Source of the DNA: Arenimonas sp.
GTDB lineage: Bacteria > Pseudomonadota > Gammaproteobacteria > Xanthomonadales > Xanthomonadaceae
Assembly (NCBI GenBank): GCA_043721835.1
Contig: JAYSQD010000111.1
Span: forward strand, 60,703 to 124,702
Direction: 5' to 3'
DNA: 64,000 nucleotides
How positions within the stretch are numbered: position 1 is the first letter of the stretch; each line of letters starts with the position of its first letter. Of the stretch, positions 1 to 18,328 are shown piece by piece. The notes below the pieces were generated by a model that worked only from the letters and a program-made list of their open reading frames with translations, had not been told where the DNA came from and did no database searches. The translations under genes and the position numbers were made by a program.

Positions 1-1814
1 ATAACATGGGATTGTCTAAGCGTCGCGCAGTCGCGGTTAAAGGCGTACTTGATCCATTGCTTACTCAGCGCATTTCGATCTCGTCGTACGGGGAAACCAA
101 TCCTGCTACATCAAACGATACGGTAGAAGGCCGCAGTCGCAATCGACGCGTGGACATTCGATTTGCTAGTGATCGGCCGCCCAAGAAAGACGACCCGCCA
201 AAGAAAGATGATCCCCCCAAGAAGGACGATCCGCCAAAGAAAGATGATCCCCCCAAGAAGGACGATCCGCCTAAAAAAGATGACCCACCAAAGAAAGACG
301 ATGACGACACTATTTTTTGCCTTGAATATCCAATTCTGTGCGGGATAGGTCTAGCGCCATTTTTTGCACCGTTAATTTGTTTGGTTGCGCCGGAAATATG
401 TGTTGCTATTGCCTGTGCATTGCTGCCCGAGTTATGCATTCCACCTATTCCACCGGGCCCACCAGAACCGCCCAAGCCTCCGGAGAAGCCACCCGAGAAT
501 GATGGCAAAAACCCGCACGTGATTTTTACGCCACAAATACGCGCCGATAACACACCAAGACAGATGAATGATCGCATCGGTATTCGCGATGACGTCAGCG
601 TAACGGCATTGGTGCTCAACCCTCCAACTGATGGTTCGCATATCAATATTTTTGTCAGCGCACCAACAGCCGATACTGGCAATGCCACTGTCAATGGACA
701 ACAGCAAATATCTATAACAGGTACTACTTCGCTAAATATTCTTGGCACACAAATGTCGGGGGGTAATTACTTGTTGAGCCCAAATATTCAACTAGGTGCT
801 AACTGGTCTTCTGGCCTCGTGGGACAAAGTAACCGCTTCGCGGTCTCCACAATTGCAGAAGATTGGTCAGTGACCGATGCAGGCAGCAATGTCGGTCGTT
901 TTGGATATGTATCAAAGGCCGATATGGATTGGGTTTCGGATAGCGGTGCGTACTCGCATCTGGATGAGTGTCGTTATGTTGAGCGCGTCGAATTGGCTAG
1001 TGAAAGCGGCAGCATGGAAGGCTTGTGTACCGGCGGAGTCAATGATCCCGACGATGTAAACACCTGTGATTTTCACCCCGCGTTCGACGAACACGGCACA
1101 CCGTTCGAAAATACACGCGATGCACACCGGTCCGGCACTAGTCGATTGCGCCAATTGTTTACCATCCGAGATATGCGTTCCAACTCTGACTGGGCAGCCT
1201 CGCGGGGCTCGGGTTTTGAAATTCATCGCGATTACCAACGTGATCCGGAAAATCCCAAGTGCTGGCGTCTGGACGTTAAAAAGTTTGGTGCATCGGTTAG
1301 CGCTGGCGGTTGGAGTGCCGACGCAGGCTCGGGTAGCTACTCGCATGAGTTTCGGGGAATTGATTGCGATCAGCCGCCGCCCAAGAAAGATGACCCGCCA
1401 CCGAAGAAAGACGACCCACCACCGAAAAAGGATGACCCGCCACCGAAGAAAGACGACCCGCCAAAAGTGCAAGAGCCATGTTGCGATCGGCCAGAAATGG
1501 CCACGCGTGTAAATTTGTGCATAGACGCTGCAAAACAGGATGCGATAAATTGCACGCTGGCAACTCTCGAGCCACCGTATGATCCTTTGAATAACATCAA
1601 AAAACTGGCGGAATACTATCAGTGCCTAGATAGCCTCAAAGCCAATCTCTTGGAATGCGATAAAAAAGCCAAAAGCGACACCAATTGCCCTGATCAAAAT
1701 ACACCATCGGACTGTAGTAGCGAGGAGTTCATTGCGCAACATTCAGTTGCCGATTTTGTGACCTCACTGCCAACACCGAGCAATCCTGATGAGGAGGCAG
1801 AACGACTTTCTTAG
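1..1814 (+). CDS. 5'-truncated OmpA_C-domain protein with two Pro/Lys/Asp spacer arrays, a Cys-rich hydrophobic segment and a Cys-rich C-terminal domain
   Basis: The frame of ORF 6..1814 is open to the window edge. The first ~55 aa (LSKRRAVAVKGVL...YGETNPATSNDTVEGRSRNRRVDIRF) are the C-terminal half of an OmpA/MotB peptidoglycan-binding domain, so the true N-terminus lies upstream. Next come (PPKKDD)x7, a hydrophobic C-x6-C-x12-C-x6-C-x4-C-x6-C stretch, a ~300-aa unassigned domain, (PPPKKDD)x4 and an 8-Cys tail. Confidence 0.75.
   Translation, partial: NMGLSKRRAVAVKGVLDPLLTQRISISSYGETNPATSNDTVEGRSRNRRVDIRFASDRPPKKDDPPKKDDPPKKDDPPKKDDPPKKDDPPKKDDPPKKDDDDTIFCLEYPILCGIGLAPFFAPLICLVAPEICVAIACALLPELCIPPIPPGPPEPPKPPEKPPENDGKNPHVIFTPQIRADNTPRQMNDRIGIRDDVSVTALVLNPPTDGSHINIFVSAPTADTGNATVNGQQQISITGTTSLNILGTQMSGGNYLLSPNIQLGANWSSGLVGQSNRFAVSTIAEDWSVTDAGSNVGRFGYVSKADMDWVSDSGAYSHLDECRYVERVELASESGSMEGLCTGGVNDPDDVNTCDFHPAFDEHGTPFENTRDAHRSGTSRLRQLFTIRDMRSNSDWAASRGSGFEIHRDYQRDPENPKCWRLDVKKFGASVSAGGWSADAGSGSYSHEFRGIDCDQPPPKKDDPPPKKDDPPPKKDDPPPKKDDPPKVQEPCCDRPEMATRVNLCIDAAKQDAINCTLATLEPPYDPLNNIKKLAEYYQCLDSLKANLLECDKKAKSDTNCPDQNTPSDCSSEEFIAQHSVADFVTSLPTPSNPDEEAERLS
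177..302 (+). repeat. Coding tandem repeat, 7 x 18 bp (PPKKDD)
   Basis: Read directly from the sequence. Units 2-3 (195-230) and 4-5 (231-266) are an identical 36-bp duplication (ccgccaaagaaagatgatccccccaagaaggacgat). Confidence 0.95.
1374..1457 (+). repeat. Coding tandem repeat, 4 x 21 bp (PPPKKDD)
   Basis: Read directly from the sequence. It lies in frame within ORF 6..1814, and a partial fifth unit runs to 1466. Confidence 0.95.
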
Positions 1815-2105: not shown

Positions 2106-4385
2106 TTGGAAACTCCCATGACAGAACTAGCGACATCGCTAAAGGCTAATGCTCCGGAACAAAAACGAGCAACAGCACAAAATGTCAATGAACAAATTTC
2201 CGCATCGAACGCCGAACCAAGCATGCGTTCTGCATCATGCGCCTGCGGTGGCGGCTGTGCGCGATGTAATAACAGGAAAAACAGCAGCCGTGGAATATTA
2301 CAAGCGAAACTAGAGGTCGGTGCACCTGACGATGCTTATGAACAAGAAGCAGATCGGGTTGCTGATGAAATTCTAGCAACTCCATCGGGCAAGGCTATCA
2401 GCAGTAAAACGCCACCTCTTATCCAGCGACTGACAAGTCAAACTAATGGATATAAAACTGCAGCACCACCGAGCGTGGAAAGCGTCCTTTCTGGATCTGG
2501 TAAACCCCTTGACACACAACTACAACAAGATATGGGCCAAAGATTCAGCCAGGATTTTTCTGAAGTGCGAATTCATACTGGTATGGATGCAGAACAATCA
2601 GCACAAGAAATAAGCGCACACGCCTATACAGTTGGAAGGAATATTGTATTTGGTGCAGGACAATTTGCACCAAGCTCGCAGCAAGGAAAACGATTGCTTG
2701 CACATGAGTTGACGCATGTAGTGCAGCAGAGATCAGAAATTAACAGGCAAATAATACAAAGAGACATTTGGTATAGAGGCGAAGGTACAGGGGTAGCGCC
2801 CGCTGCACCTGGTAGTGTGATTCATGATTTTGGTGATGGCCTGTACATGACAGATAGCCCAGCGTTAGCTGCTGAGTATGCAGCATTAAGGTCTGGGTCT
2901 ATGGAAGGGTCAGCTCCTCTTGTTTTAGCTGCAGATATAGAAAGCAGTTCTTTGGGAAGAATTCTGAATCTCTTGAGTGACACACGATGGCAGCAATTTT
3001 TAGCAGAGAGCCCCATACCAGGAGGTCCGACACATCAAGCACTCATTCAAATGGCCAACGAAAACTATGAGGCAATATTCCAAAATTTTTTACAGCGAAA
3101 CAATTTACATCTGGAAAATTTTGATACCGTTATTGGCCAGGAATTTGTCCGGGGCGGCACTCAAATCTGTGTACGTAATCCTTCCATTGTTAGCCAAATA
3201 AGGGCTGCGCTCAGACCGTATGTGCCATCAGCAGCAGGTGCAACCACTTCAAGACCTGGTTCAAGTGCAAGTGAGCCTCCGACCACTCCGGTTAGCGTAG
3301 CAACTCGGTATAACATCTTAAATACTACTGTTAATGAAGCGGGCAATACAGTAGCCGAGGTCGAAATATTATTAGGACGCGGCGCAGAAGATCTGAGCAG
3401 AGTATCAGGCGGTACGTCGATGCCATCGAGGATTGTATTGCGCATAACAACGAGTGCGGAAGGTGCATTTGTTGGGGCAGAATCGGTGGGCATAGAATTA
3501 AGTTCTGGGGTGACAGAAGCATTGGCAAGACAAATTATTGCAACCTTGCCTGAGGCCGCCGCAGTCGGTGCCGAAGGCGCTGTCGTAGGCACTGCTGCTA
3601 CAGCCGCTCGAGCATCCAGATGGGTAAAAGGATTAGGTTGGGCCGGAATAATTTTATTCATCGGTGTTACAGGTTATCAATATAGTCAGGCGACTACTGA
3701 CCGGGCTAGGCGCAGGGTGCTAGTCACTGCTGGGGCAGGTTTAGCGGGAGGCACAATCGGCACCTATGTTGTGTGCAATCTAATATTTGGAATTGAAACT
3801 TTTGGACTTAGCTTAATTGGCTGCGGTTTGGTTGCGGGAGGTGCAAGTGCTTACATTGCTTCAGAAGCATCAGGGGAAGTGTACGACGAGGCAACAGCCA
3901 CGCCACTTGAAAGTAGTTTGCATGAACTAGAGTCACTACCCGAAATGGTAAGACGATTATTTTTTGGCATGCTTGACTCAAATGGAGATCTAAATGGTGT
4001 GCCACTTTCCAGTGAATTTGTCAGAGAATTCATGAGAGTAGTTCCCTCTGGAATATCACAGTATGAAGTCAGTGTTTTATTGGGTAACTTAAGGCAATCA
4101 GGCAGCACTGACACAATTGCTTCGATCATCTCTTCGCTTCAAACGGCTATTAGCCAATTACCTGGGCGAAGACTTGCACAACCACCCGCTACTCTTGGAA
4201 TTCTCGATGTAACAGGCGGTAGTGCGATTTTTCCATTTCATATTGATACGGATATCTCGATTCCACTTGGCCCAATGCGCCTATTGCCCCCGCCCAGACC
4301 TTTGCCGGGAGGACTAGGACGTGATGAAGTTCCTACAGACAGGAGAATTGCCCCCTCCCTTCCTGCTGCAGAAATTAGGTTTTGA
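2106..4385 (+). CDS. DUF4157 (HExxH zincin-like) head protein with an unassigned globular domain and a glycine-zipper transmembrane tail (P1)
   Basis: 759-aa ORF with a TTG start at 2106 and an alternative ATG at 2118. It has CACGGGCARC at 2238-2267. It carries the DUF4157 signature GKPLDTQLQQDMGQRFSQDFSEVRIHTG...AYTVGRNIVFGAGQFAP...LLAHELTHVVQQ, with HELTH at 2703-2717. Hydrophobic Gly-rich segments (WAGIILFIGVTGY, VTAGAGLAGGTIGTYVVCNLIFG, LIGCGLVAGGASAYIA) lie at ~3621-3863. Confidence 0.85.
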   Translation: METPMTELATSLKANAPEQKRATAQNVNEQISASNAEPSMRSASCACGGGCARCNNRKNSSRGILQAKLEVGAPDDAYEQEADRVADEILATPSGKAISSKTPPLIQRLTSQTNGYKTAAPPSVESVLSGSGKPLDTQLQQDMGQRFSQDFSEVRIHTGMDAEQSAQEISAHAYTVGRNIVFGAGQFAPSSQQGKRLLAHELTHVVQQRSEINRQIIQRDIWYRGEGTGVAPAAPGSVIHDFGDGLYMTDSPALAAEYAALRSGSMEGSAPLVLAADIESSSLGRILNLLSDTRWQQFLAESPIPGGPTHQALIQMANENYEAIFQNFLQRNNLHLENFDTVIGQEFVRGGTQICVRNPSIVSQIRAALRPYVPSAAGATTSRPGSSASEPPTTPVSVATRYNILNTTVNEAGNTVAEVEILLGRGAEDLSRVSGGTSMPSRIVLRITTSAEGAFVGAESVGIELSSGVTEALARQIIATLPEAAAVGAEGAVVGTAATAARASRWVKGLGWAGIILFIGVTGYQYSQATTDRARRRVLVTAGAGLAGGTIGTYVVCNLIFGIETFGLSLIGCGLVAGGASAYIASEASGEVYDEATATPLESSLHELESLPEMVRRLFFGMLDSNGDLNGVPLSSEFVREFMRVVPSGISQYEVSVLLGNLRQSGSTDTIASIISSLQTAISQLPGRRLAQPPATLGILDVTGGSAIFPFHIDTDISIPLGPMRLLPPPRPLPGGLGRDEVPTDRRIAPSLPAAEIRF

Positions 4386-4486
4386 ACTTATGGATTTTTA
4401 CATCGATTAGGCAAATTAAATGATGACGGCAAGATATACATTTTTGATATTTCAACTCTAAATTACTTCTTTTTTACGGACTACAA

Positions 4487-7009
4487 ATGGCAATGCTTTC
4501 TACAGCATCAAAAAATAGCTTTAACGGATCGCAAAATACCTCGACTAAAAATACTGTTGGAAAAAACTTGGTATCAAACGCTCAATTGCCAATGCGCACC
4601 ACTCCATGCGCTTGTGGTGGCGGCTGTGCACGATGCAATAGCAAAAAAAATCAGAGCAATAAAATATTACAGACCAAGCTGCATATAGGGGACGCAAACG
4701 ATGTTTACGAACAAGAAGCAGACCGTATCGCTGACCATATTTTAGCCTCATCAACGCCTTCAGCAATCAATGCGGCACCACTATCTATCCAACGCGTGAC
4801 AGGGCAAGCTAATGCTCAAATTGGCTATACAATTCCCGCAAGCATTGATCACGTTATTTCGAGTGGCGGCAGCCCATTGGAGCAAACACTGCAACAAGAT
4901 ATGGGCCAACGCTTCGGCCACGATTTTTCTGATGTGCGAATACACGCCGACACTAACGCAGAAAAATCTGCACAAGACTTGCAGGCCAAGGCATACACCG
5001 TTGGACAAAAAATTGTATTTGGCGCTGGTCAATTTGCACCAGGCACCCATGCAGGGCGACACTTGCTTGCACATGAGTTGACCCATGTTGTGCAACAACG
5101 TACCGATGCATCGTCCGCCACAAACTTACAACGACAGCCCTCTACAAGCACTGCAAGACCACCACACATCACACAAATAGTGGTTGATCAAAACACACCG
5201 CAACAAGTCACTGCGACCTTTAGTGATGGCCATACGGAAAGTGACACCTGTTCTACTGGCAAAGGCCATTGTTGTTTCGATGATGATGCCGGTACTGCCA
5301 AAGGTGGTGCCTGCTCTGCCGCCCGCTCTGTACAAGTCGGCAACAATTGCACTCCCATTGGTGACTTTACCGTTACCACCCAAGTGCCAGTGACCAGCGG
5401 CGGGGTTCGACTATGGACACAATTTCACAATGCAAAAAGTGTTGCCCTGCATGAATATTCTCCAGTCGATGGCACACCTTTGTCGCATGGCTGTGTTCGC
5501 ATGAATACCGCCATGGCACAAACCATTTACGACGGTACCCGAGTAGGAGTAACGCGCGTCAGGGTACAAGGCTTGGCAAGGCCGAGTTGTACAAATACAA
5601 ATTTGCAGAATGAATGGAGCGGTGATTTTAGTTCGGCGGGCACAACACCGCCAGACGGAACCACGATAGATCCGATGCTAGGACGCCGTCTCACGCCAAC
5701 AGAAGTTACTCAGGAAAGAAATCATATTCGTGAGTCACGTGAAGAACTACGCAACGCCTATGGCGTCAACGACGCTGGCCTGGATACTGAATTGGCAACG
5801 GTACAAGGCGGCGCCTCTATTGTTTCAAGAATCCCACGCTGCGTGCCTGCATTAACCACGGAAGAACAGCAAGTTCCCGCCGCACAAACCAGCGGTTTCC
5901 TGACAACAGGCGCCACTACTACCGCTACTGCCTTCACCACAGCATTGAGCGCTTTACGTTCAGAGGCAAGTGCAGTTCAGCTCGTACAGCAAACAGGTGA
6001 ACAACTTTGGCAAGCGGCGACCGCTGCTGCGCGTGCCGGGGGTAGCGGTAGCGATGACCGTCAGTTGTATTGGACAAGATTGATGATGACCACCGCATTG
6101 CGTCAATGGAACCCTTCATGGCTCAGGATTAGTGCAGTCAGTAGTAATGTAGATGCGCTAAGAAGATTACAAGCACGGCTTTTACAATTGCTGGAACAAA
6201 GCTCGCGCGGTATCACTAGCACCGCTTTCCCTACCAGTAATCCGGATGAAAAAAGAATCCTTATCAGCGGCTTTGACCCGTTTGGTTTTTCTACCGGCGG
6301 TGACATTCGTCAGAGCAATCTTTCTGGCGCAGCAACTTTGGCATTGGATGGTGAAACGCTGACCCAAGGCAGCATTACGGCACATGTAGAAGGCGTAGTT
6401 TTTCCTGTTCGTTATAGGGATTTCAATGATGGCATTGTTGAAAATAGTCTTCGCCCGCATCTGACAGGATCACAGCCACCGCATTTGGTCATGAGCATCA
6501 GCCAAGGCAGCAGTCAATTTGAATTTGAAGAAACCGCTGGTCGTAGAAGATCGGCGGGTAGTTTTCTGGACAATTTAAATCGCCCCAGTGGAACCGAAAC
6601 TAATCCAACAATACCGCCAGGATCACCGGCACTTGCCGCTAGTCCCGAATTTTTGCCGCATAGTGTGCCTTCAGCCATGCTCGGAGCAATGCGTGGAGCC
6701 GAAGGGCGCACAGGCGCAATCCCCGAAGAAACTACCGTCAAAGATTTACCAATTGGCGCAACGCAACCACGCACCTTACCTGCGGGGCCAGGAACAAATC
6801 CCGGTATCGCCGTCGAAGGTTCTGGCGGTGGTTTTCTGTCTAACGAAATTTTTTATCGCAACAGCTTATTGCGTACTCAACTCGGCTCAACCATACCCAT
6901 GATTCATTTGCACACACCGCGACTTCCACCGGGCGCTACCGATACGGTGCGAAATAATTTTATTGATCGAACGCGGGCCATTTTAAGAGCATCATTACCC
7001 AGTCTTTAA
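4487..7009 (+). CDS. DUF4157 head protein fused to a YkuD-type L,D-transpeptidase fold and a peptidase-C15 (pyroglutamyl-peptidase)-like fold (P2)
   Basis: 840-aa ORF with CACGGGCARC at 4607-4636 and HELTH at 5072-5086. The YkuD-like region is ~5168-5572 (IVVDQ...STGKG...TPIGDFTV...ALHEY...GTPLSHGCVRM, with SHGCVRM at 5483-5503). The C15-like region is ~6251-7006 (KRILISGFDPFG ... FEFEETAG ... GGGFLSNEIFY ... MIHLHTP). Confidence 0.85.
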   Translation: MAMLSTASKNSFNGSQNTSTKNTVGKNLVSNAQLPMRTTPCACGGGCARCNSKKNQSNKILQTKLHIGDANDVYEQEADRIADHILASSTPSAINAAPLSIQRVTGQANAQIGYTIPASIDHVISSGGSPLEQTLQQDMGQRFGHDFSDVRIHADTNAEKSAQDLQAKAYTVGQKIVFGAGQFAPGTHAGRHLLAHELTHVVQQRTDASSATNLQRQPSTSTARPPHITQIVVDQNTPQQVTATFSDGHTESDTCSTGKGHCCFDDDAGTAKGGACSAARSVQVGNNCTPIGDFTVTTQVPVTSGGVRLWTQFHNAKSVALHEYSPVDGTPLSHGCVRMNTAMAQTIYDGTRVGVTRVRVQGLARPSCTNTNLQNEWSGDFSSAGTTPPDGTTIDPMLGRRLTPTEVTQERNHIRESREELRNAYGVNDAGLDTELATVQGGASIVSRIPRCVPALTTEEQQVPAAQTSGFLTTGATTTATAFTTALSALRSEASAVQLVQQTGEQLWQAATAAARAGGSGSDDRQLYWTRLMMTTALRQWNPSWLRISAVSSNVDALRRLQARLLQLLEQSSRGITSTAFPTSNPDEKRILISGFDPFGFSTGGDIRQSNLSGAATLALDGETLTQGSITAHVEGVVFPVRYRDFNDGIVENSLRPHLTGSQPPHLVMSISQGSSQFEFEETAGRRRSAGSFLDNLNRPSGTETNPTIPPGSPALAASPEFLPHSVPSAMLGAMRGAEGRTGAIPEETTVKDLPIGATQPRTLPAGPGTNPGIAVEGSGGGFLSNEIFYRNSLLRTQLGSTIPMIHLHTPRLPPGATDTVRNNFIDRTRAILRASLPSL

Positions 7010-7079
7010 TTTATTTTTAAACTGAACAGCCAGCCCGCATCAACGCTTACGAGAGGATTGCAAATCACCGCAATGAATC

Positions 7080-9929
7080 ATGAATAAATTAAATACAAAC
7101 AAGAATGAAAATTCGAGCACGGCGGCTATTAGAAAGCCTTTAGCGACACGTCACTTGGGAGGAAGCAATCTAAATAGTCAGCCTGTTAGCAGCCAATGCG
7201 CTTGCGGTGGCAGCTGCCCTGCTTGCCAAAAAAAATTAAATGACATCAATATTTCACAACCTGCCGATGCAGCAGAAATGGAAGCCGACCAGATTGCCGA
7301 TAAAGTTATGCGAATACCTGCGGGAAAAACTACAGCCGTGGAAAGCAGAAAAAAATCTCCTGGTGCTATCCTACGCAAATGCAGTACCTGCGAAGATGAC
7401 GAAAAAAAGATTCACAGAAAACCGGTTTCTACCGGCGGCGCTGTGCCATCGCAAAGCGCAGCACATGTCAGCAATGCCATGAGTTCTGGCGGTCATCCGC
7501 TAGATAGCGAAACCCGCAATTTCTTCGAACCACGCATGGGTCGCGATTTTGGCAATGTCCGTGTTCATAGCGATTCAAGCGCCAATCATTCCGCTCGAGC
7601 GATTGATGCAAAAGCCTATGCGCTGGGCAACAATATCGTATTCGGCCAAAATCAATACAAGCCGGATTCTGACAGTGGCAAACATTTACTGGCACATGAA
7701 TTGGCGCATGTAGTTCAATCAGACAATTCTTCTGCGACTATTAACAGGCAAATGATTTATCGACAGCCTGCAAACGGTAGCACAGGTGATTTGGCAGTTA
7801 TCGATTACGAAATCCAGATGCTGAACGAAATGCCGGTAATGGACCCATTGGCCGCTGCCGCCGTGAATATGCAGCTGATCCAACTTCTTAAACGACGCGA
7901 CGAATTGTTGCGAGAGGGCGCGGGCACTTATGCGATAGCGCCCACAAAGCCAAAAACGGCAGTGAAGAAACCCGCTACCGGAAATGTCAATGACGATTTA
8001 TTTGCATCGCTGGACGACATGACACAACTTGAACAGGACCGGATGCATCAACAAATGCAAGACTTCAATACCATGGCCAAAGGCGGCTTGGGAAACCAGA
8101 ACTTCCAGTTCAAGCCGGTGCAGAAGCCACAGGTTGCGCAGAGCGGCTGCCATGTTGATCCTTACGTCCGATCGACGGGCGCAAGTACGTGCGGATTCAA
8201 ACGACCCGATGATGCAACCCGCGCGACACAAAAAGCGATGCAAATGCCCGCTCCTGATTTCAGTGCGGAAAACGCGAAAGAACGGGCGATGCTGGATCGT
8301 CTCAACTCGGCACATCTGACATGGAAAAGAACGGGTAAATTCACCAGCAGTAGCGAGTTCAGTCCCTACGAAATCGAAAAAGACAGGATCATTGTCCTTT
8401 ACAAGCGCTGGGACCTGTTTGAAAAAAGCGATCCGGATAAGGACGTCATAAAAAATCCGCTTGAATACTATTTCCGCCACGGGGGCGAATACATCAAGGA
8501 AAAAGAACGCCGCATATCGATGAAGCCATTCAAGGACAGGCTATATGCGGCCAGACAAAAAGCACGCTCCCGGTCAGACTATTGGTACTCGGCACACGAA
8601 GCCAATGAAAAAATGACTGGAGAGGAGGTCTGGCACGCAGGCTACTACGGCAGTCTTTTCATCGAAAGCGAGAAGGCACGCGTTTACAAGGAACAAGGTG
8701 CGCTACAAGAGCTTGAGCGCGAAGAGCGTGAAGAACGCCAGGCTCAAGACAGGCGCAATTTCGAGATCCAAAAAGAAAACAACTGGGAAGCACAGGGAGA
8801 TCAGCTTTCATCGCCTGCTACCATTCTTCAACCGTTTGCCATGGCCGTATTGGGAGCGCCTATTGCCGGCATTTATACCGGCATGCAGATGGGAATGATG
8901 GGTAACGAGGCCTACCAAGCCTGCAAGGATGGTTTTAGCTTTGATTGTGCCTTGTCTGCGGCTCCCATCGTCGCGACCGTCGTCATCCACCAAGTCACCA
9001 AACCTTCGGTAACGGCAAGACCTTCACTACCGAAATTGGCAACTGCTGCACCGACCATTATTGAACCCATCGTGAAACCCGGCATTGCCGAGCCCGTCCT
9101 GACATCGACAATCACAGAACCTGCAGTCAAACCTTCAGTGACTCCACCTGCTGTCAAACCGGTAGCGACAGAACCTGCCATCAAGCCCTCGACCACTGAA
9201 CCCGCTATCAAACCCGCAGAGACTCAAGCTACTGTCAAACCGGCAACAACAAAACCTCCGGTCAACCCAAGACAGGCGATGGAAGAGGCAAAGCTGGCCA
9301 ACGAAAAACGCATCGCCGAACTTGACGACAAGATTCGAAAACACCAGACAAATCAAAAAGACTATAACGACAAAGCGACTCGTATCGAGGCTGAACGGAA
9401 AACTTCGGATTTCCGCGAAAAGGCTGCCAATGCAAAAAGACAGGCTCGCAATGAAAAAAGACTCGCCGATGAAGCTGCCGCAGAACGTCAAAACCTTCGT
9501 TCACACAATGACATAATCGACAAGACACTAAATCCACCACCGCCCCGCCAGATTGGACCGGGACCTGGCAAAGCCCGTGGCGGCGCACACAGCGCACTAG
9601 AGGTCGCCGGTGGCGAGAGAAACCATATCCCGGCAGACGATTCCACCAAAATCCCTACCGGCAAAGGACCGGCCATCTGGATGGAAATAGAAGATCACAA
9701 GCAACTCAATAGTTCGGGCCAGCGCAATTTCAAGCCGACAGGAAAGTATCACATCTCCTCGGCTTCCGAATGGCGTGCAATGCAAAAGGATTTGATAAAG
9801 CAAGGCAAGTATATGGAAGCAATAAAAATGGATATTGACGACATCCGATCAAAATTTGGGTCGAAGTATGATGTCGGTATCCAGGAAATGCTGGAATATG
9901 TCAAAACGCTCAGACCTGGCGAATTCTGA
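7080..9929 (+). CDS. DUF4157 head protein with a helical region, a TM segment, a 9-aa repeat linker, a coiled coil and a small HNH-like C-terminal domain (P3)
   Basis: 949-aa ORF with CACGGSCPAC at 7197-7226 and the DUF4157 core GHPLDSETRNFFEPRMGRDFGNVRVHSD...AYALGNNIVFGQNQYKP...LLAHELAHVVQ (HELAH at 7695-7709). The hydrophobic stretch is LQPFAMAVLGAPIAGIYTGMQMGMMG...AAPIVATVVI. The C-terminal ~118 aa (9573-9926) contain ERNHIPADDS...GPAIWMEIEDHKQLNSSG. The head call is firm; the HNH-like call for the tip is tentative. Confidence 0.85.
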   Translation: MNKLNTNKNENSSTAAIRKPLATRHLGGSNLNSQPVSSQCACGGSCPACQKKLNDINISQPADAAEMEADQIADKVMRIPAGKTTAVESRKKSPGAILRKCSTCEDDEKKIHRKPVSTGGAVPSQSAAHVSNAMSSGGHPLDSETRNFFEPRMGRDFGNVRVHSDSSANHSARAIDAKAYALGNNIVFGQNQYKPDSDSGKHLLAHELAHVVQSDNSSATINRQMIYRQPANGSTGDLAVIDYEIQMLNEMPVMDPLAAAAVNMQLIQLLKRRDELLREGAGTYAIAPTKPKTAVKKPATGNVNDDLFASLDDMTQLEQDRMHQQMQDFNTMAKGGLGNQNFQFKPVQKPQVAQSGCHVDPYVRSTGASTCGFKRPDDATRATQKAMQMPAPDFSAENAKERAMLDRLNSAHLTWKRTGKFTSSSEFSPYEIEKDRIIVLYKRWDLFEKSDPDKDVIKNPLEYYFRHGGEYIKEKERRISMKPFKDRLYAARQKARSRSDYWYSAHEANEKMTGEEVWHAGYYGSLFIESEKARVYKEQGALQELEREEREERQAQDRRNFEIQKENNWEAQGDQLSSPATILQPFAMAVLGAPIAGIYTGMQMGMMGNEAYQACKDGFSFDCALSAAPIVATVVIHQVTKPSVTARPSLPKLATAAPTIIEPIVKPGIAEPVLTSTITEPAVKPSVTPPAVKPVATEPAIKPSTTEPAIKPAETQATVKPATTKPPVNPRQAMEEAKLANEKRIAELDDKIRKHQTNQKDYNDKATRIEAERKTSDFREKAANAKRQARNEKRLADEAAAERQNLRSHNDIIDKTLNPPPPRQIGPGPGKARGGAHSALEVAGGERNHIPADDSTKIPTGKGPAIWMEIEDHKQLNSSGQRNFKPTGKYHISSASEWRAMQKDLIKQGKYMEAIKMDIDDIRSKFGSKYDVGIQEMLEYVKTLRPGEF
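9114..9275 (+). repeat. Coding tandem repeat, 6 x 27 bp (T-E-P-A-[IV]-K-P-x-x) inside P3
   Basis: Units run 9114-9140, 9141-9167, 9168-9194, 9195-9221, 9222-9248 and 9249-9275. They were read in frame as TEPAVKPSV, TPPAVKPVA, TEPAIKPST, TEPAIKPAE, TQATVKPAT and TKPPVNPRQ. Confidence 0.9.
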
Positions 9930-9945
9930 ACATGGGAGATAGTCA

Positions 9946-10365
9946 ATGAATTACCCGATCAAACCCTATTCCGGAGTCGGACAAATCAATTTCCGGATGA
10001 CGATTGCCGAAGTTCGAAAAACACTTGATAGCGAACTTGGAAATTCATTGAAGCCAGGCAAAGATATGCCTTCGGATTTTTTCAAATCGCTCGGTATCTT
10101 CGTGGATTACCGCTCGCCAGGCATTTGCCAGGCCGTGGAATTCACTGGCCCCGCCAGCCCGACCTTCGAGGGCCGCGAGTTGATTGGAGAGCCGTTTGGC
10201 AACATCGCAGCCTGGATAAAAACATTGGATCATCATGTTCTTCTGGATGGCGCAGGGCTCAAAAGCATGAAATACGGTTTCGGCCTATACGCACCGTCGG
10301 CGGAAAAAAATCCGGAGCTACCCGTCAAGGCAGTCCTTATTTTTGACCGCGGTTACTTTGAATAA
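9946..10365 (+). CDS. Small cytoplasmic protein directly downstream of P3; candidate cognate immunity protein
   Basis: 139-aa ORF starting 17 nt after the P3 stop on the same strand, with no signal peptide and no motif I can name. The assignment is purely positional, from the toxin-immunity gene order. Confidence 0.45.
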   Translation: MNYPIKPYSGVGQINFRMTIAEVRKTLDSELGNSLKPGKDMPSDFFKSLGIFVDYRSPGICQAVEFTGPASPTFEGRELIGEPFGNIAAWIKTLDHHVLLDGAGLKSMKYGFGLYAPSAEKNPELPVKAVLIFDRGYFE

Positions 10366-10403
10366 CGAATTGCTGATATCGAATGATCATTTGAAAATAA
10401 TGA

Positions 10404-10645
10404 TCAAGTCGACAAATGCGACAGTTGGGTCGCATTGTCTTCCCAGTTTTGTCCATCAAAAGCTTCCACGGTCATATTCATAACGGTTCCCGCATCCAAG
10501 CAACGGGCATTCACATCCACACCATCGGGATTGCTGCGGGGAATGTAAAAACTTTTGATGCCGCAAACTTTACAAAAAACTATGTTTGGCAACGTCCGTG
10601 TTGAAAGTGTATTCGCTCAAAATTCATGCCCGCTAATCAATTGTA
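10404..10645 (-). pseudogene. Decayed 3' fragment of a GFA/CENP-V family gene (partial duplicate of 13400..13804)
   Basis: The 62-aa ORF 10404..10592 (FCKVCGIKSFYIPRSNPDGVDVNARCLDAGTV.NMTVEAFDGQNWEDNA) aligns with the C-terminal half of the intact 134-aa protein at 13400..13804. Nucleotide similarity continues to ~10645 with frame-breaking indels, and the N-terminal Cys-rich half is missing. Confidence 0.8.
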
Positions 10646-10695
10646 GGTGGCGGCAATGGCAAGCACCGCGATGAATAACAATATCGGAAACTTGC

Positions 10696-11694
10696 ATGGA
10701 TCAATATCCCATTTTATCTTTGCCTTTGTTTTCATGCTTTTCTTTTTTTTCTTTAAGGGCCGGTGCTACACCATATCGATACATGCCGCTGCCCGTGTCT
10801 AATACAATACTGAAATCAATTGCTGCGCCAATGACTAAACCAACTTCGACTCCAGCAGCAACTTCAACGCCTATACCTGTCCAAACAACGAAACCAAATC
10901 CAACATCTACTATTGATTCGGCAAAGCCAGCTTCACCCGACCCTGCGGTCGGATCAAAGCCAGCTACTCCCGTCATAACAACCAAGCCAGCGATTGGTCA
11001 GGGACAGCGACGCTTTGTAAATATTCAAACACCCGATCGGCAAATAACGCCCGCCTTTATTACACCTCCGCAGGACGTATCTGCGATCAGGTAGAGAATC
11101 GAAACCCTCGCCGACAAACCGGTGATAGTTGGAGTGCAGGCGAAGATAAACGTCGGCACCGAAAATGTTTTAACCGGACTCACGCATGCTGGGTTCACGA
11201 AAATGGATAATACGCGTGCCCAAGCACTGGGTGGAATCGGCGAAGCGGCGATGCTGCCACAAGTAACACAGCCGCCCGGAACACCGGCGAAAGCAGGCAA
11301 CCAGCCTTCCACCGGAATGATCGTCCGCCCTTTGGGACAGTCGGCACAATTGGAGGTCTTAGCCTGGAATACCGGCGCTCCCAGAAGTGACAACAAACCC
11401 TCGCATGCCGAAAGGCAATTCATAGAATGGTTTCATGGCCAAAGCCTGAAATGGAAAGAAAATGTTACCAGCGTTGATGTGCTCGTTTTCGGGCGCAACA
11501 TTTGCCCGAATTGCGATGCTGATCTCAAATGGTTGGAAGACAATAATCCGCATATCAAATTTAGTTGGATACGGGGCGACAAGTATCACCTGAAATCAAT
11601 GCACATTGCCCTTGTACAACGAACACTGCCAGAAGCTAGCGAAACATATCACCCACCAACAATGCTAACGAAACTGGCAATGAAACTACACTAG
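10696..11694 (+). pseudogene. Head-less (orphan) toxin cassette: P/T/K-rich linker plus zinc deaminase-like domain, split by one in-frame TAG
   Basis: ORFs 10696..11094 and 11122..11694 share a frame, separated only by TAG at 11092-11094 and 27 stop-free nt. The downstream part carries SHAERQFIEW (HAE at 11404-11412) and, 30 residues later, ICPNC (11503-11514), which is the H-x-E...C-x-x-C deaminase zinc signature. The 190-aa ORF could still be expressed from GTG 11122 or ATG 11203. Confidence 0.6.
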
Positions 11695-11708
11695 ATTAAT
11701 TGAAAAAG

Positions 11709-13301
11709 TCATCGTAATTTTTTATCACATTCCAGATTCTCGAACTTGGGAAGATGCTCAATAATTCCATGTACAGCATCCGGATTAGTTTTTGGATAAT
11801 ATTTAAGAACTTCGTTTTTCCAGTTGACAAGGTAGTAGTTGATCTTCGATTCATCTGCCTTGTCTTTATCGAATTCCGACAAATCCAGATTGGGGTCACC
11901 GTCGGCATAGACATGGCTCGTGTCATGTGGATGCGAATGATAAAAGCCTACCAGTTTTTCATCGGGAGTCTCTTGTTTTACAATCTGTCCACATTCATTG
12001 AGTTTGCCGGAAACCGGACCGGTAATTCGATAGCTTCCATCCGACCTAGCGATAATGTTGCCGCAAAATTCAAGGCCCTTGTTGACGATACCGCAACGAG
12101 CCTGTCTCAGCTTAGGCATTACCTGGTCATCCATCGCGTTCAGTGTCGGCGGCTTTTTCTTAGGTGTCGGTGGAGTACCAGCTAAAGAATCAATGACGTC
12201 TTTATTAATGTCATATAGTTCCCATGACGGCATCTTGTCTTTTGCTTCAAACGCAACAATGGCCGTGAAAACATAATAGCGATAATTTTCTATAAGTTTT
12301 TTTTGCAAGTCAGGATCGCTGTTCAAGCTTTTGCTTGTGCGATCACGAGCTTCAAGGAACCATTTGCGCATGACAATTAAGTCATCGCGCAAACTATTGG
12401 GGAAGCGTTCTGGATGTGACAATAGTTCACCGCTACTGTATTGCCAGCCGCTGAAAGACAGCAACCAAATCACTCCCTCTACAAAACTCTTGGCATCTTT
12501 TTCGTTGGGATCAAGCTTATTGATTTTTTCTTCATTACTTTTGGCACCAGCGTTCTCATGACCAACTTCCGCTTCAGGCTGACGCTGCAAAGTCGCAGAA
12601 CCCTGGCTCATAGGCATTTGCGGGCGCAGCCGTGGAGTATCTTGTGGATCGAAAGCAGACTGCTGCACCACATGCGTCAACTCATGCGCCAGCAATCGCT
12701 TGCCTTGATTCGTTGTTGGTGTGTACTGGCCTGCACCAAATACAATATTATTTCCAACCGTATAAGCATTGGCACTTACATCGCGGGCCGATTGTTCTGC
12801 GGCGGCTCCGGAATGCACTCGCACAGCTGAAAAATCATTACCAAAGCGCTGTCCCATATCATGTTGTATGGAAGCTTCAAGCGGCTTACCCGAACCTGCA
12901 AGCACGTGGTCTACGCTTGCGGGTGCTGCATTATTCGATGCTTCCGCAGCATGTGCTGTGAAGCGCTGAATACGTGGCGCCGAGTTGCTCACTGCCGAAT
13001 GCGTAGATGTCGCCATGATCTGATCTGCTACTCGATCGGCCTCTTGCTCTAAGGGATCATTACTTGCACCAATGCTAAGTTTTTTTTGTAGCTTGCTTGT
13101 GTCGTCTGATTCGGAACCTGCTTGGCAACGGGCGCAGCCGCCACCACAGGCACAGCTAGACTTGCGTTGAATTTGCATCGAGCGAGCCGAGCGATTTGCT
13201 GTTTTTTTTTGATGAGCAGACATCAACCCTGATTCTCTCGAAGAACTGGCTAACATTGCAATCACTTCACTTCTCCTACTCGGCAGAGCGCACCACTTCA
13301 A
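11709..13301 (-). CDS. DUF4157 head protein with a DUF4329/JAB-like C-terminal domain (P4)
   Basis: The longest ORF is 530 aa, and the likelier starts are ATG 13256 or 13223. It has CACGGGCARC and the DUF4157 core GKPLEASIQHDMGQRFGNDFSAVRVHSG...AYTVGNNIVFGAGQYTP...LLAHELTHVVQQ (HELTH at 12672-12686). The C-terminus reads EFCGNIIARSDGSYRITGPVSG...VGFYHSHPHD...LSEFD...INYYLVNWKNEVLKYY (motifs at 11868-11939), which matches the pattern I associate with DUF4329. Confidence 0.8.
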   Translation of the reverse strand: MKWCALPSRRSEVIAMLASSSRESGLMSAHQKKTANRSARSMQIQRKSSCACGGGCARCQAGSESDDTSKLQKKLSIGASNDPLEQEADRVADQIMATSTHSAVSNSAPRIQRFTAHAAEASNNAAPASVDHVLAGSGKPLEASIQHDMGQRFGNDFSAVRVHSGAAAEQSARDVSANAYTVGNNIVFGAGQYTPTTNQGKRLLAHELTHVVQQSAFDPQDTPRLRPQMPMSQGSATLQRQPEAEVGHENAGAKSNEEKINKLDPNEKDAKSFVEGVIWLLSFSGWQYSSGELLSHPERFPNSLRDDLIVMRKWFLEARDRTSKSLNSDPDLQKKLIENYRYYVFTAIVAFEAKDKMPSWELYDINKDVIDSLAGTPPTPKKKPPTLNAMDDQVMPKLRQARCGIVNKGLEFCGNIIARSDGSYRITGPVSGKLNECGQIVKQETPDEKLVGFYHSHPHDTSHVYADGDPNLDLSEFDKDKADESKINYYLVNWKNEVLKYYPKTNPDAVHGIIEHLPKFENLECDKKLR

Positions 13302-13399: not shown

Positions 13400-13804
13400 C
13401 TAGCCTTTGGAAAGATGTGCCAATTTCGCCGCATTGTCTTCCCAATTCTGCCCATCAAACGCCTCAACCGTCATTTTCGTGACCGTTCCGGGTTCCAAGC
13501 AACGGGCGTTGACATCAACACCATCGGGATTACTGCGCGGGGTGTAAAAACTTTTTATGCCACAGACTTTACAGAAAATATGTTTGGCGACACCGGTATT
13601 GAAGGTGTATTCGGTCAAAAATTCATGACCGCTAGTCAGTCGAAATGCCGGGCGTGGCACGATCAAATGTAAAAATCCGGTCAGGCTACATAATGAGCAA
13701 TTGCAGTCTTGCACGGTGATATTGGCAGGTGCATCGACCTCAAAAACAACGCGGCGACAATGACAGCCGCCGCGATGAGTAGTCCAGTCAGAGCCTTGAA
13801 TCAT
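13400..13804 (-). CDS. GFA (glutathione-dependent formaldehyde-activating enzyme)/CENP-V family protein
   Basis: 134 aa with the Cys-rich zinc motifs GGCHCRRV...CNCSLC...FCKVCG typical of the family. Confidence 0.8.
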   Translation of the reverse strand: MIQGSDWTTHRGGCHCRRVVFEVDAPANITVQDCNCSLCSLTGFLHLIVPRPAFRLTSGHEFLTEYTFNTGVAKHIFCKVCGIKSFYTPRSNPDGVDVNARCLEPGTVTKMTVEAFDGQNWEDNAAKLAHLSKG

Positions 13805-14379
13805 TAGTGGCCTTTACCGTTCTTTTCCTTGCCTTTAGCAGGCTTGCCCATGTCTTTCGATTTGCCGCCTTTATTTGAATTTCCAGGGCCGTGGTCGTTG
13901 CCGCCATGCATATTTGAGCCCTTATCTTTGCCATGTCCTTTGGTCTTGAACTTGCCGTTTGATTTACCAACCTTGCCCTTTAAGGCATGAAAAGCTTCCG
14001 AGCCAGGTTTGATGCCCATGCGTTTAGCAATAACGCCCCAGCCTTGTCCATGATTTTTATCGTAATCGCGCAACACATTTTGGCAGGGTACGCGAAGCTG
14101 ATAAGCCAACGCGCAGCCGTAGTAAACGTCACCAGGTGCCCAGCGGCGGTCAACAATATATTCGTTTACCACGTAACGCGGTGCACCGAAGCTATTGACT
14201 ACATCATCAATGAAATAATTGCGGTCATCACGCTCATATCGGTTCATATCACTGAGCTGTGCGTCCATCCAGACATCGCCAGTGCGGGGATTGAAACCGA
14301 ATATATAATTATCAACTTGGGCCTGGGCATTGAAACTGAAAGCCAAGCCCAATGCGAGTAATAAATTGCGAAAATTCAT
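13804..14379 (-). CDS. Secreted hypothetical protein with a Lys/Gly/His-rich tail
   Basis: 191 aa with the signal peptide MNFRNLLLALGLAFSFNAQAQ and the C-terminal low-complexity stretch GKSNGKFKTKGHGKDKGS...KGKEKNGKGH. Its stop overlaps the gfa start (TAATG at 13802-13806). Confidence 0.6.
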   Translation of the reverse strand: MNFRNLLLALGLAFSFNAQAQVDNYIFGFNPRTGDVWMDAQLSDMNRYERDDRNYFIDDVVNSFGAPRYVVNEYIVDRRWAPGDVYYGCALAYQLRVPCQNVLRDYDKNHGQGWGVIAKRMGIKPGSEAFHALKGKVGKSNGKFKTKGHGKDKGSNMHGGNDHGPGNSNKGGKSKDMGKPAKGKEKNGKGH

Positions 14380-16053: not shown

Positions 16054-16323
16054 TTATCGCAGCAACAAAACTACGCAATAAATAGCGGCGGCAAAGCCGA
16101 CCAGCGTGGTAAAAAAGCAGGTCAATATAGCGCTGTACAAAGCAAAACGGCTCATCCAGCGCTGACGCGAAGTCAGCGTGTGGTAATGGGTGCCAAACGC
16201 GGTACCCGATGCCAGTGCGAACATGCCCGAGAATGCCGCCGAACCTGTCATCACAAAGGCCACAATCAGCCACACCCACCAGATCGCGGCGATCTCTTGC
16301 AGGAATGCTATTGCTTGCGTCAT
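16054..16323 (-). CDS. Small integral membrane protein, unknown function
   Basis: 89 aa with three hydrophobic spans, starting 4 nt downstream of the tkt stop on the same strand. Confidence 0.5.
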   Translation of the reverse strand: MTQAIAFLQEIAAIWWVWLIVAFVMTGSAAFSGMFALASGTAFGTHYHTLTSRQRWMSRFALYSAILTCFFTTLVGFAAAIYCVVLLLR

Positions 16324-16327
16324 GGCC

Positions 16328-18328
16328 TTACAGCGCCTTTACGGCGGCGACAGCGGCATCCACCGTAATGCCGAAGTATTTATAAAGTGCCTCAATGGGT
16401 GCCGATGCACCAAAGCTGTCGATGCCAATCACCGCGCCATCAAGGCCGACGTACTTGCGCCAGAAATCGGTGACACCCGCTTCAATGGCCACACGTTTGC
16501 GACAAGCCGCTGGCAGTACCGATTCACGATAGGCTTGGTCTTGTTTGTCGAAGGTATTGGTACTTGGCATTGATACCACGCGCGCCTTGATACCCTGGGT
16601 ATCGAGTTGTTTTGCGGTTTGCATCGCCAGCTCAACCTCGGAACCAGTCGCAATAATAATGACATCGAAGTTCGCCACATCATGCAAAACATAAGCGCCA
16701 CGTTCAATATTGGCAACCTGTTTTTCATCACGAATTTGATGGGCAAGATTTTGACGCGAGAAAATCAAGCAGGTCGGACCATCTTTGCGTTCAATCGCTT
16801 TCTTCCAACTAACCGCCGATTCAACTGCATCGCAAGGACGCCATAAATCATTGTTCGGGATATAACGCAACGAGGCCATATGTTCGACCGGCTGATGCGT
16901 CGGGCCGTCTTCACCCAGACCAATCGAGTCGTGAGTAAACACATGAATGCTGCGTGCAGGAATTAATGCCGACATCCGCAAGGCATTGCGCGAGTAATCC
17001 GAAAACACCAGAAATGTTGCATCGTAGGGCAGGAAGCCGCCATGCAATGCAAGGCCATTGCTGATCGCGCTCATGCCAAATTCGCGAACACCGTAATACA
17101 CGTAGTTGGCATCGGCATCGCTGGAAGTAACCGATTTGCTGCCTTTCCATAAGGTGAGATTCGAGTGTGCAAGATCGGCCGAACCGCCGATCAATTCCGG
17201 CAATAATGGCGCAAAGGTTTCAATCGCCATTTGCGAGGCTTTACGCGAGGCCACGACCGGGCCTTCGATTTGCAGCTTGGCTATATAGGCATCGGCATCA
17301 TCGGCAAACGTTTCCGGTAACACACCGTGCGAGCGTCGGGTTAATTCCAAGGCTTCTTTTGGAAACACATCTGCATATTTATCGAACAGTCGGTTCCATT
17401 GTTCTTCGCGCACCAAACCAGTATTGCCTGCGCGCCAACCGGCATAAATTTCTTCGGGAATTTCAAAAGCGGCATACGGCCAATTCAATTGTTTGCGAGT
17501 GGCTTCAACTTCTTCTTTACCCAGCGGTGCACCGTGTGCCGATTCTTTACCGGCTTTATGCGGTGAGCCAAAACCAATGGTGGTACGGCAGCAAATTAAG
17601 GTTGGCTTATGGGTTTCTGCTTGCGCGGTTTTAATCGCCTGGATAATTTCATCGCTATCGTGGCCGTCAACGCCGCGAATAACTTGCCAGCCATAGGCTT
17701 CAAAACGGGCGGGCGTGTTATCGGTGAACCAGCCGTCAGTATTGCCGTCAATCGAAATTTTATTATCGTCCCAGAAGCAGGTTAATTTTCCCAAACCCCA
17801 AGTACCGGCGAGCGAAGCCACTTCATGTGAAATACCTTCCATCAAACAACCATCACCCAAAAATACCCAGGTGTTGTGATCAACGATTGAAAATTCCGGG
17901 CGATTAAAACGCTGCGCCAATAATTTTTCCGCCAAGGCAAAACCTACTGCGTTTGCCAAGCCCTGCCCCAGCGGACCGGTAGTCGTTTCAATGCCGGGTG
18001 TTTCGCTGGCTTCTGGATGCCCGGCCGTTTTTGAATGCAATTGGCGGAATTTTTTCAATTCTTCCATCGGCAAGTTATAGCCGGACAAATGCAAGAGTGC
18101 GTAATGCAGCATTGAGCCGTGCCCGTTAGACAGCACAAAGCGGTCTCGGTTAAACCACTTCGGGTTATTCGGGTTATGACTGTAGAAGTCGTTCCAAAGC
18201 ACTTCAGCGATATCGGCCATGCCCATCGGCATGCCGGGATGCCCGGATTTGGCGGCTTCTACGGCATCAATAGCAAGAAAGCGGATGGCATTGGCGAGTT
18301 CGCGGCGAGTTGGCTGGGTAGTCGGCAT
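16328..18328 (-). CDS. tkt: Transketolase
   Basis: 666 aa with N-terminal [38 protein letters not shown] and the ThDP motif [12 protein letters not shown]. Confidence 0.97.

Follow-up and report, generated by a model that had tools for sequence, protein, structure and literature searches.

The first 13.4 kb of a 64-kb stretch of Arenimonas sp. DNA (the window, meaning the stretch at its full length) hold an island of genes for modular proteins, in which one type of N-terminal head, built around a DUF4157 zincin domain, is followed by unrelated effector regions. This island is probably the cargo (3′) end of an operon encoding an extracellular contractile injection system (eCIS) of the antifeeding prophage/Photorhabdus virulence cassette (Afp/PVC) type, the structural genes of which would be located upstream of position 1. 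An earlier note on this DNA, made from the sequence without database searches, had recognized the island but described it as having no delivery machinery in view, with the export route left open. No gene for a contractile injection system (CIS), type VI secretion system (T6SS), Rhs protein or CdiB was indeed found at 14 to 64 kb among the 30 large open reading frames (ORFs) scanned, which were all but five of those of at least 150 residues. This absence is most likely an effect of where the window was cut, because the island extends to the left edge, which cuts through its first gene, and because the arrays of related loci follow eCIS genes. A truly machinery-less island is therefore considered unlikely. 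The features of the island are as follows.

3–1814, plus strand: ORF1, 3′ remainder of a fifth cargo gene (DUF4157-OmpA-X), the head of which lies beyond the window edge
2106–4385, plus strand: cargo protein 1 (P1), with the head extending to about nucleotide 2750, a DUF3990-like domain, a transmembrane (TM) hairpin and a C-terminal region
4487–7009, plus strand: cargo protein 2 (P2), with the DUF4157 head, a YkuD domain, a linker and a C-terminal domain
7080–9929, plus strand: cargo protein 3 (P3), with the head, a helical region, a TM hairpin, a repeat linker, a Lys/Glu-rich helix and a toxin tip
9946–10365, plus strand: candidate immunity gene for the P3 tip (139 residues, cytoplasmic, no Pfam match of its own)
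10390–10680, minus strand: decayed pseudogene of the GFA/CENP-V type, a DNA copy of the gene at 13400–13804
10696–11694, plus strand: orphan head-less cassette, a Pro/Thr-rich linker and a deaminase-like domain, with an in-frame TAG at 11092–11094
11709–13301, minus strand: cargo protein 4 (P4), with the DUF4157 head, a spacer of about 170 residues and a DUF4329/JAB-like domain, convergent with the other genes of the array
13400–13804, minus strand: intact GFA-type gene at the right border of the island, homologous to the Pfam GFA gene of a relative (L089)

Position of the array relative to eCIS genes

In each of five related loci (L001, L002/L007, L004, L005 and L090/L091), the DUF4157 array was located directly downstream of eCIS genes, and the genes of the two groups were co-directional and overlapping or nearly abutting. 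In L001, L004 and L005, arrays of three to eight DUF4157 genes came directly after genes encoding DUF6519, Beta_helix and Big_1 proteins. In L002/L007, a co-directional series specified a Pvc16_N cap, an AAA ATPase, a Phage_base_V spike, GPW_gp25, a baseplate J-like protein (P0035, homologues of which are named "putative baseplate assembly protein") and a DUF6519 protein, and continued into an array including an orthologue of ORF1. The ORF1 orthologues of the relatives were 61 to 68% identical to ORF1. The closest relative was JGI contig Ga0654468_0000031 (L090), which displayed 85 to 90% DNA identity to the window over 3.5 kb; P3 and the immunity gene were 83% and 93% identical, respectively, at the amino acid level. 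In this contig, genes for Phage_base_V and gp25 proteins, three genes of baseplate size, a DUF6519 gene and a gene of 298 codons led to four DUF4157 genes. The P3 orthologue is the last of the four; downstream of it are the immunity gene, a GFA gene that is intact, and a DUF4157 gene on the minus strand. As judged from the gene order of the relatives, the genome from which the window originates would probably have an eCIS that starts a few kilobases upstream of position 1.

Several points weigh against this assignment. The presence of an upstream eCIS in this genome is deduced from its relatives and was not seen directly. The array is known here through its genes, so that secretion, loading and toxicity of its proteins are predictions. 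One array gene (P4) is on the opposite strand and is set off by a pseudogene; therefore, an upstream operon cannot include all of the array genes in its transcript. Finally, Sphingomonas sp. HF-S4 harbors a homologue of ORF1 (45% identity), a DUF4157-OmpA gene that stands alone, with no CIS gene within 10 kb, and stand-alone DUF4157 genes therefore exist.

The last observation is one of three that would fit a self-standing island of DUF4157 toxins, in a genome with no eCIS or with none serving the array, the proteins reaching their targets by a T6SS encoded elsewhere, by lysis, in vesicles or through an exporter reading the leader of the heads. The other two are that the 64 kb scanned contain no CIS gene and that DUF4157 is present in some T6SS effectors (Danov et al. 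2024, PMC11297309). We regard this explanation as unlikely, since the window edge truncates the first gene of the island, eCIS baseplate genes immediately precede the array in each of the five related loci, and the leader with its cysteine knuckle (see below) is common to eCIS-linked arrays and absent from the Sphingomonas orphan. A stricter form, in which the source genome lacks an eCIS and the leader and knuckle are the signal of an undescribed export route, also has little in its favor; if true, it would mean that the association of DUF4157 with contractile injection systems is not a fixed one.

Searches for more direct neighbors of the left edge gave little. Exact-protein searches with P1 (from its TTG start), P2 and the transketolase were without result, a 36-mer from the start of the window had no match in metagenome contigs, IMG/VR contained no relative, and the GTDB representative genomes provided only ORF1 relatives of 61 to 64% identity. 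Two of the related loci belong to distant hosts: L002/L007 is from a metagenome-assembled genome (MAG) of the Solibacteraceae and L001 is from a gammaproteobacterial MAG, and both carry orthologous DUF4157-OmpA cargo (61 to 64% identity to ORF1) and syntenic eCIS modules. Genes for a primase, an integrase and a transposase are located just downstream in L002. These observations, in one acidobacterial and one gammaproteobacterial MAG, suggest that the system was transferred horizontally as a whole.

The DUF4157 head and its leader

The four head-bearing ORFs reported in the earlier note, P1 to P4, were present as described, as long intact frames of 530 to 949 codons. All four matched PF13699 (eCIS_core, formerly DUF4157), for which the gathering score is 22 bits, with scores of 104.6 to 110.1 bits and E values between 3e-30 and 7e-32 (P1, 1.5e-31; P2, 7e-32; P3, 3e-30; P4, 6e-32). 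The profile search thus supported the proposed membership of the heads in DUF4157, and the link between DUF4157 and eCIS, to which the earlier note had pointed, is established in the literature (PMC8213781, PMC11297309 and PMC3482391). The number of head-bearing genes had to be raised from four to five. The translation of ORF1 opens partway through an OmpA domain (profile positions 51 to 98 at residues 2 to 47), and 28 of its 34 homologues in a collection of 5.8 billion proteins combine PF13699 with OmpA; ORF1 is therefore the remainder of a fifth such gene, the head of which was cut off by the window edge. The ORF1 orthologues of L001 and L002 are DUF4157-OmpA fusions, the two lengths being 924 and 1,035 residues. 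The true start of P1 is likely the ATG at position 2118, since an identical product starting at 2118 was called on a Logan contig of 4.8 kb, which itself begins within the window.

MAFFT alignment of the N-termini showed that the four heads are 36 to 50% identical. The three motifs on which the common head had been recognized were invariant: residues C45, C47, G48, G49, C51 and C54 of the CxCGGxCxxC knuckle, the acidic E[QM]EAD helix (E..EAD), and LLAHEL[TA]HVVQ. The zincin motif HExxH(xxQ) was intact in all four proteins, as AHELTHVVQ or AHELAHVVQ. A third-ligand Glu downstream of HExxH was not evident in this alignment, as the sequences part right after HVVQ. An Arg residue is conserved within the [IL][NQ]RQ junction, beyond which the four proteins have no similarity to each other, in agreement with the complete divergence of the tails noted earlier.

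The absence of a Sec- or Tat-type N-terminus was borne out as well. The first 40 residues of the four heads had mean hydropathies of −0.5 to −0.9, and no hydrophobic stretch occurred in the first 60 residues (maximum Kyte-Doolittle mean over 19 residues, ≤0.46; no dedicated signal-peptide predictor was used). At the level of DNA, the island did not differ from the chromosome in base composition, promoter-like sites were no more frequent than in shuffled sequences, and terminator-like sites numbered 30 versus 18.8 in shuffles, the sites being counted without individual inspection.

The CxCGGxCxxC knuckle was found in 23 of the 28 head-type proteins of the window and of seven related or comparison loci; the Sphingomonas orphan protein and a DUF4157 protein of another lineage (L009) lacked it. 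In the cargo array of L004, which is linked to an eCIS, positions 16196 to 16960 encode a cargo-like protein of 254 residues in which the polar leader and a CACGGGCPTC knuckle are joined directly to an Aspzincin_M35-like HEAGH domain. Because this protein has the leader and knuckle but no DUF4157 core, the two parts of the head appear to be separable, and the leader with its knuckle may constitute a module in its own right. By analogy with AlgoCIS, in which a disordered N-terminal domain is needed for loading and DUF4157 is dispensable, the leader and knuckle could be the loading signal of this lineage, and the zincin core could be an accessory or processing module. A four-Cys leader acting as a loading signal would help in the reprogramming of eCIS particles.

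We therefore propose the following organization, in which five full genes and one decayed cassette would encode modular effectors. Each effector would open with a polar, probably disordered leader and the CxCGGxCxxC knuckle, serving as a loading signal on the model of Cgo1 and Cgo2 of AlgoCIS. The E.EAD helix and the DUF4157 zincin core (HExxHxxQ) would come next as an accessory or processing module, and release of the toxin by cleavage is predicted. The variable effector region would come last, in the form of OmpA-X, an ADP-ribosyltransferase (ART)-like domain with a TM hairpin, YkuD with a second domain, a hairpin-linker-tip assembly, or a DUF4329/JAB-like domain. Particles would be released, bind to the target cell, contract, and inject their cargo. 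Tails would be exchanged by recombination behind the conserved head, and the orphan cassette with its deaminase-like domain and the second GFA copy would be the scars of such events.

Effector regions, immunity and recombination

In ORF1, the C-terminal half of the OmpA domain is followed by PKKDD repeats, a hydrophobic segment rich in Cys, a domain of some 330 residues, a second PKKDD block, and a Cys-rich C-terminus. The repeats are tandem units of 18 to 24 nucleotides at 159–320 and 1377–1475 that encode PPKKDD, and the two blocks flank the hydrophobic segment and the 330-residue domain; the assembly of one Logan contig (L003) breaks in the first block. A scan with NCBIfam added only matches of the OmpA type.

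For P1, the earlier note had announced an unassigned globular domain followed by TM hairpins. TM-like segments were recovered at residues 538 to 586. The globular domain matched DUF3990 below threshold (E = 9e-5; 22.6 bits for a cut-off of 32.2), the match nevertheless spanning positions 23 to 150 of the 152-position profile. DUF3990 is a member of the ART clan of Pfam and is found as an Rhs C-terminal domain in Serratia. A single-sequence AlphaFold2 (AF2) model of the domain had a predicted local distance difference test (pLDDT) value of 41.6 and was unusable.

The two folds proposed for the tail of P2 fared differently. The YkuD domain was confirmed (E = 1.2e-10; 42.1 to 42.6 bits for a cut-off of 23.4), with the SHGCVRM motif present. 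The resemblance of the C-terminal domain to peptidase C15 was at the level expected by chance (Peptidase_C15, E = 0.11, 12.9 bits, profile positions 1 to 45 only). This domain (6239–7009) contains the motifs ILISGFDPFG, GGGFLSNEIFY and MIHLHTP, in this order. We take these motifs to be reminiscent of pyroglutamyl peptidase I, presumably with Ser at the position of the catalytic Cys of the C15 family.

The assignment of the P4 tail was upheld, with a DUF4329 match of 29.7 bits for the tail alone (cut-off, 28.6) and weak JAB matches (E = 0.011). Searches of PDB sequences with all of the tails, the deaminase and the profile of the P3 tip returned matches at chance level only. No ORF of at least 80 codons was present between P1, P2 or P4 and the next gene, so that these proteins have no immunity partner downstream.

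Three of the five cargo proteins contain an internal TM-like hairpin (residues 103 to 151 of the ORF1 fragment, 538 to 586 of P1, and 580 to 639 of P3), located in each case between the head-proximal domain and the C-terminal effector. The DUF4157 protein of the other lineage (L009; 1,282 residues) is arranged likewise, with the head, a domain, the TM hairpin, a Lys/Glu linker and the tip in succession. In the target, the hairpin may serve for membrane insertion or for translocation.

Comparison with the closest relative provided a direct view of tail turnover. For P1, P2 and P4, matches there were limited to the heads (residues up to about 240), and the ORF1 fragment of the window, which lacks its head, had none. 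At the position of P4, the relative has a gene with a head 61% identical and a tail consisting of a calpain-type Peptidase_C2 domain instead of DUF4329. The other related loci contained no tails of P1, P3 or P4, no deaminase and no immunity ORF; a DUF4157-YkuD gene was also present in L001. The alignment of related loci suggested in the earlier note thus revealed tails exchanged between close relatives behind a conserved head, and this exchange supports the interpretation of the island as a polymorphic-toxin locus.

For the P3 tail, the TM-like segments (residues 580 to 639), the repeat linker (five 27-nucleotide repeats at 9086–9268 encoding TEPAxKP), the Lys/Glu-rich helix and a conserved tip were all found. 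The HNH-like character attributed to the tip is putative and based on a resemblance in pattern. The tip comprises about 130 residues (nucleotides 9531 to 9929). A word-indexed search retrieved six relatives only, and a profile built from these retrieved 1,967 clusters (at 50% identity) with E values of up to 1e-3 in an exhaustive run against 1.84 billion representatives. Among the 150 clusters listed of the 1,967, the domain was almost always at the extreme C-terminus, in proteins of 100 to 3,072 residues. In 41 long members, Pfam domains fused to the tip were RHS (5), eCIS_core (5), Fil_haemagg_2 (3), PT-VENN (2), and TPS, MafB, PT-HINT and PT-TG (1 each). The tip of P3 has, by its fusion to these varied trafficking modules, the hallmark of a polymorphic-toxin C-terminal domain. 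No Pfam family covers it, since four tips had no match at E values of up to 10. Its pattern, [E/V]HH.PA followed by GPAI.M..DH, resembles the xHH...H motifs of HNH/EndoVII toxins given in passages of Zhang et al. 2012. An AF2 model based on a seven-sequence alignment had a pLDDT of 70 overall and of less than 50 in the motif region; a Foldseek comparison of this model with the PDB gave no significant match (best E = 1.7), and no PDB sequence matched the tip.

The small ORF downstream of P3 (9946–10365), which the earlier note had proposed as an immunity gene, is separated from the P3 stop codon by 16 nucleotides, not 17. The proposal itself was strengthened by a survey of 80 metagenome loci containing the tip, in 73 of which the tip ORF was located. 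In 69 of these 73 loci, an ORF, in most cases of 128 to 147 codons, started within about −22 to +153 nucleotides of the toxin stop codon. The product matched that of 9946–10365 in 52 of the 69 loci by direct phmmer comparison and in 68 after one profile iteration (41 of 42 distinct sequences; offsets of −22 to +58 nucleotides). No tip locus contained more than one ORF of this family in any of the six frames. The gene downstream of a distant homologue of the tip (L008) had given no BLASTP match to the immunity ORF, a result superseded by the survey of 69 loci. One member of the family matched Pfam DUF7738. Because the ORF partners the tip across unrelated delivery contexts, 9946–10365 is very probably the cognate immunity gene of the P3 tip. 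In many human-gut metagenome contigs (L047 to L086), the tip family occurs as short proteins of 194 to 203 residues, followed at 0 nucleotides by a 132-residue member of the immunity family.

The peptidoglycan-directed domains (OmpA and YkuD) and the dedicated immunity gene of the P3 tip point to at least partly antibacterial use of the effectors. OmpA-like and YkuD domains are also typical cell wall modules, and three of the five genes have no immunity partner, as would be expected if the proteins were paralogous zincin proteases with wall domains engaged in remodeling of the peptidoglycan of the producer itself. Such a housekeeping role is scarcely credible: the proteins have no Sec- or Tat-type N-terminus, their tails are mutually unrelated and were swapped between close relatives, the P3 tip also occurs in Rhs, CdiA-type and MafB toxins and is almost always accompanied by a partner encoded downstream, and neither a deaminase cassette nor an ART-clan-like domain belongs in the remodeling of a cell wall.

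The head-less cassette between the immunity gene and P4 was found to be a single frame interrupted by a stop. The HAE and CPNC motifs of the deaminase-like domain were present, about 28 residues apart. The Pfam matches were below the gathering scores (APOBEC_N, E = 6.5e-4, 20.2 bits for 25; SNAD4, E = 2.5e-3, 18.3 bits for 27). The ORFs encoding the Pro/Thr linker (10696–11094) and the deaminase-like domain (11122–11694) belong to one frame (426 = 3 × 142), and a single TAG (11092–11094) splits this otherwise 332-codon frame. The cassette could be a pseudogene, a silent cassette or, conceivably, a gene expressed by read-through. No ORF of immunity size (at least 80 codons) was present between the cassette and the next gene.

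The GFA pseudogene next to the cassette is about 80% identical in DNA sequence to the intact copy at 13400–13804 (direct repeats D4 and D6), and its translation contains an internal deletion and a stop. The two copies bracket a 2.8-kb block that holds the orphan cassette and the P4 gene, and in the relative (L089/L090), the immunity gene has an intact GFA gene as its neighbor. The duplication looks like a recombination scar from the gain of the bracketed block. Beyond the intact copy, ORF 13804–14379 (minus strand) encodes a protein of 191 residues with a signal-peptide-like N-terminus and a C-terminal tail rich in Gly, Lys and Asn, without an NCBIfam match; a gene of 114 codons occupies the corresponding position next to GFA in L089.

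The in-frame stop of the cassette, the GFA pseudogene and the rearrangements relative to L090 might together be read as the signs of a cargo array that has lost its expression or delivery and is eroding by pseudogenization. We consider this highly improbable for the array as a whole, given four long ORFs of 530 to 949 codons with intact HExxH and invariant head motifs, and an intact immunity gene with 93% identity to its counterpart in the relative. A cargo array subject to exchange of its tails, located at the 3′ end of an eCIS operon, thus remains our preferred interpretation.

To the right of the island, the chromosome is ordinary, with housekeeping genes, and encodes, among others, a transketolase, transporters, PilMNOPQ, PBP1A, a hybrid kinase, a serine dehydratase, peptide chain release factor 3 and phosphoenolpyruvate carboxykinase. 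A link between the island and the pilMNOPQ secretin cluster (22.6 to 27.9 kb) was considered and rejected: the cluster is an ordinary type IV pilus operon, and housekeeping genes lie in between.

Comparison with known systems

The analysis does not open a new question about secretion; it provides a clean and rich example of a probable eCIS cargo array, in which at least five effectors share one type of head. The combination of a constant zincin head and variable toxins is already known, having been described in 2012 and again between 2021 and 2024. What appears to be new is a widespread toxin/immunity pair for which Pfam has no toxin model, a Cys-knuckle leader that appears separable from the zincin core, and a direct view of tail replacement. 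The toxin family counts about 2,000 clusters, extends across Rhs, CdiA-type, MafB and eCIS proteins, and is common in human-gut metagenome contigs.

The closest published description is that of Zhang et al. 2012 (Biol Direct 7:18; PMC3482391), who named the domain PVC-metallopeptidase. In the passages of that paper on these toxins, a conserved N-terminal peptidase is recombined with variable C-terminal toxins, several such genes occur per genome, the toxin regions include Tox-OmpA, LD-peptidases, deaminases and TM pore-formers, and immunity genes are often absent; autoproteolytic release and delivery by a PVC/Afp-type phage-tail system were predicted. The polymorphic-toxin organization proposed for the island in the earlier note, a constant head with variable tails, an orphan cassette and an immunity gene, was thus correct and is the one published under this name. 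The island shares with the PVC-metallopeptidase toxins, as they appear in those passages, the N-terminal HExxHxxQ zincin, the variable toxin ends, the multiplicity of genes, and the many members without immunity genes. It differs in that the tails of P1 and P3 have no Pfam-annotated toxin family, in that the window has no visible delivery genes, and in its CxCGGxCxxC leader knuckle, which does not figure in the same passages.

Geller et al. 2021 (PMC8213781) described DUF4157 as an eCIS core marker that is N-terminal in toxins encoded at the 3′ end of operons, and DUF4157 toxins were validated. DUF4157 was later reported in 36% of the known eCIS toxins versus 0.06% of other genes (Danov et al. 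2024, PMC11297309). The proteins of the island resemble the eCIS-associated toxins (EATs) of these two studies in their probable location at an operon 3′ end, in the hydrophilic disordered N-terminus without a Sec signal, and in the presence of immunity genes for some and their absence for many. In contrast to the EATs, the position of the array of the window with respect to an eCIS operon is deduced from relatives, and the tails of the island do not appear among the experimentally tested EATs in the passages of those papers concerned with them.

In AlgoCIS (Xu et al. 2022, PMC8894135; PROCIS preprint 10.64898/2026.05.27.728243), loading depends on a disordered N-terminal domain specific to the system, DUF4157 can be dispensed with, and the cargo is located in the lumen of the tube. 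The AlgoCIS cargos Cgo1 and Cgo2 are similar to each other in their N-termini and, like the proteins of the island, consist of a disordered N-terminus, DUF4157 and a C-terminal domain of varying length. AlgoCIS belongs to the Bacteroidota and has two cargos, whereas the island is gammaproteobacterial and has at least five, with a four-Cys motif in their shared leader. Loading was demonstrated for AlgoCIS only, the island being known from its genes alone.

L,D-transpeptidase-fold effectors of T6SSs, such as Tlde1 of Salmonella, are injected as antibacterial effectors acting on peptidoglycan. The YkuD-fold domain of these effectors is also found in P2. Unlike in the Tlde1-type effectors, the YkuD domain of P2 is fused to a DUF4157 head and to a second C-terminal domain, there is no adjacent gene for a periplasmic immunity protein, and the activity is a prediction.

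Finally, the island shares with Rhs, CdiA and MafB loci the tip of P3, the small cognate immunity gene that follows it, and an orphan head-less cassette. According to Pfam, no ORF of the island contains Rhs repeats, a PAAR domain, two-partner secretion (TPS) or filamentous hemagglutinin repeats, a VENN motif, or the MafB N-terminal domain. The trafficking module is DUF4157 instead, and an immunity gene is present for one of the five toxins. The proteins of the island are therefore, as judged from their domains, not members of the Rhs, CdiA, MafB or T6SS-PAAR toxins, although one tip is shared with them.

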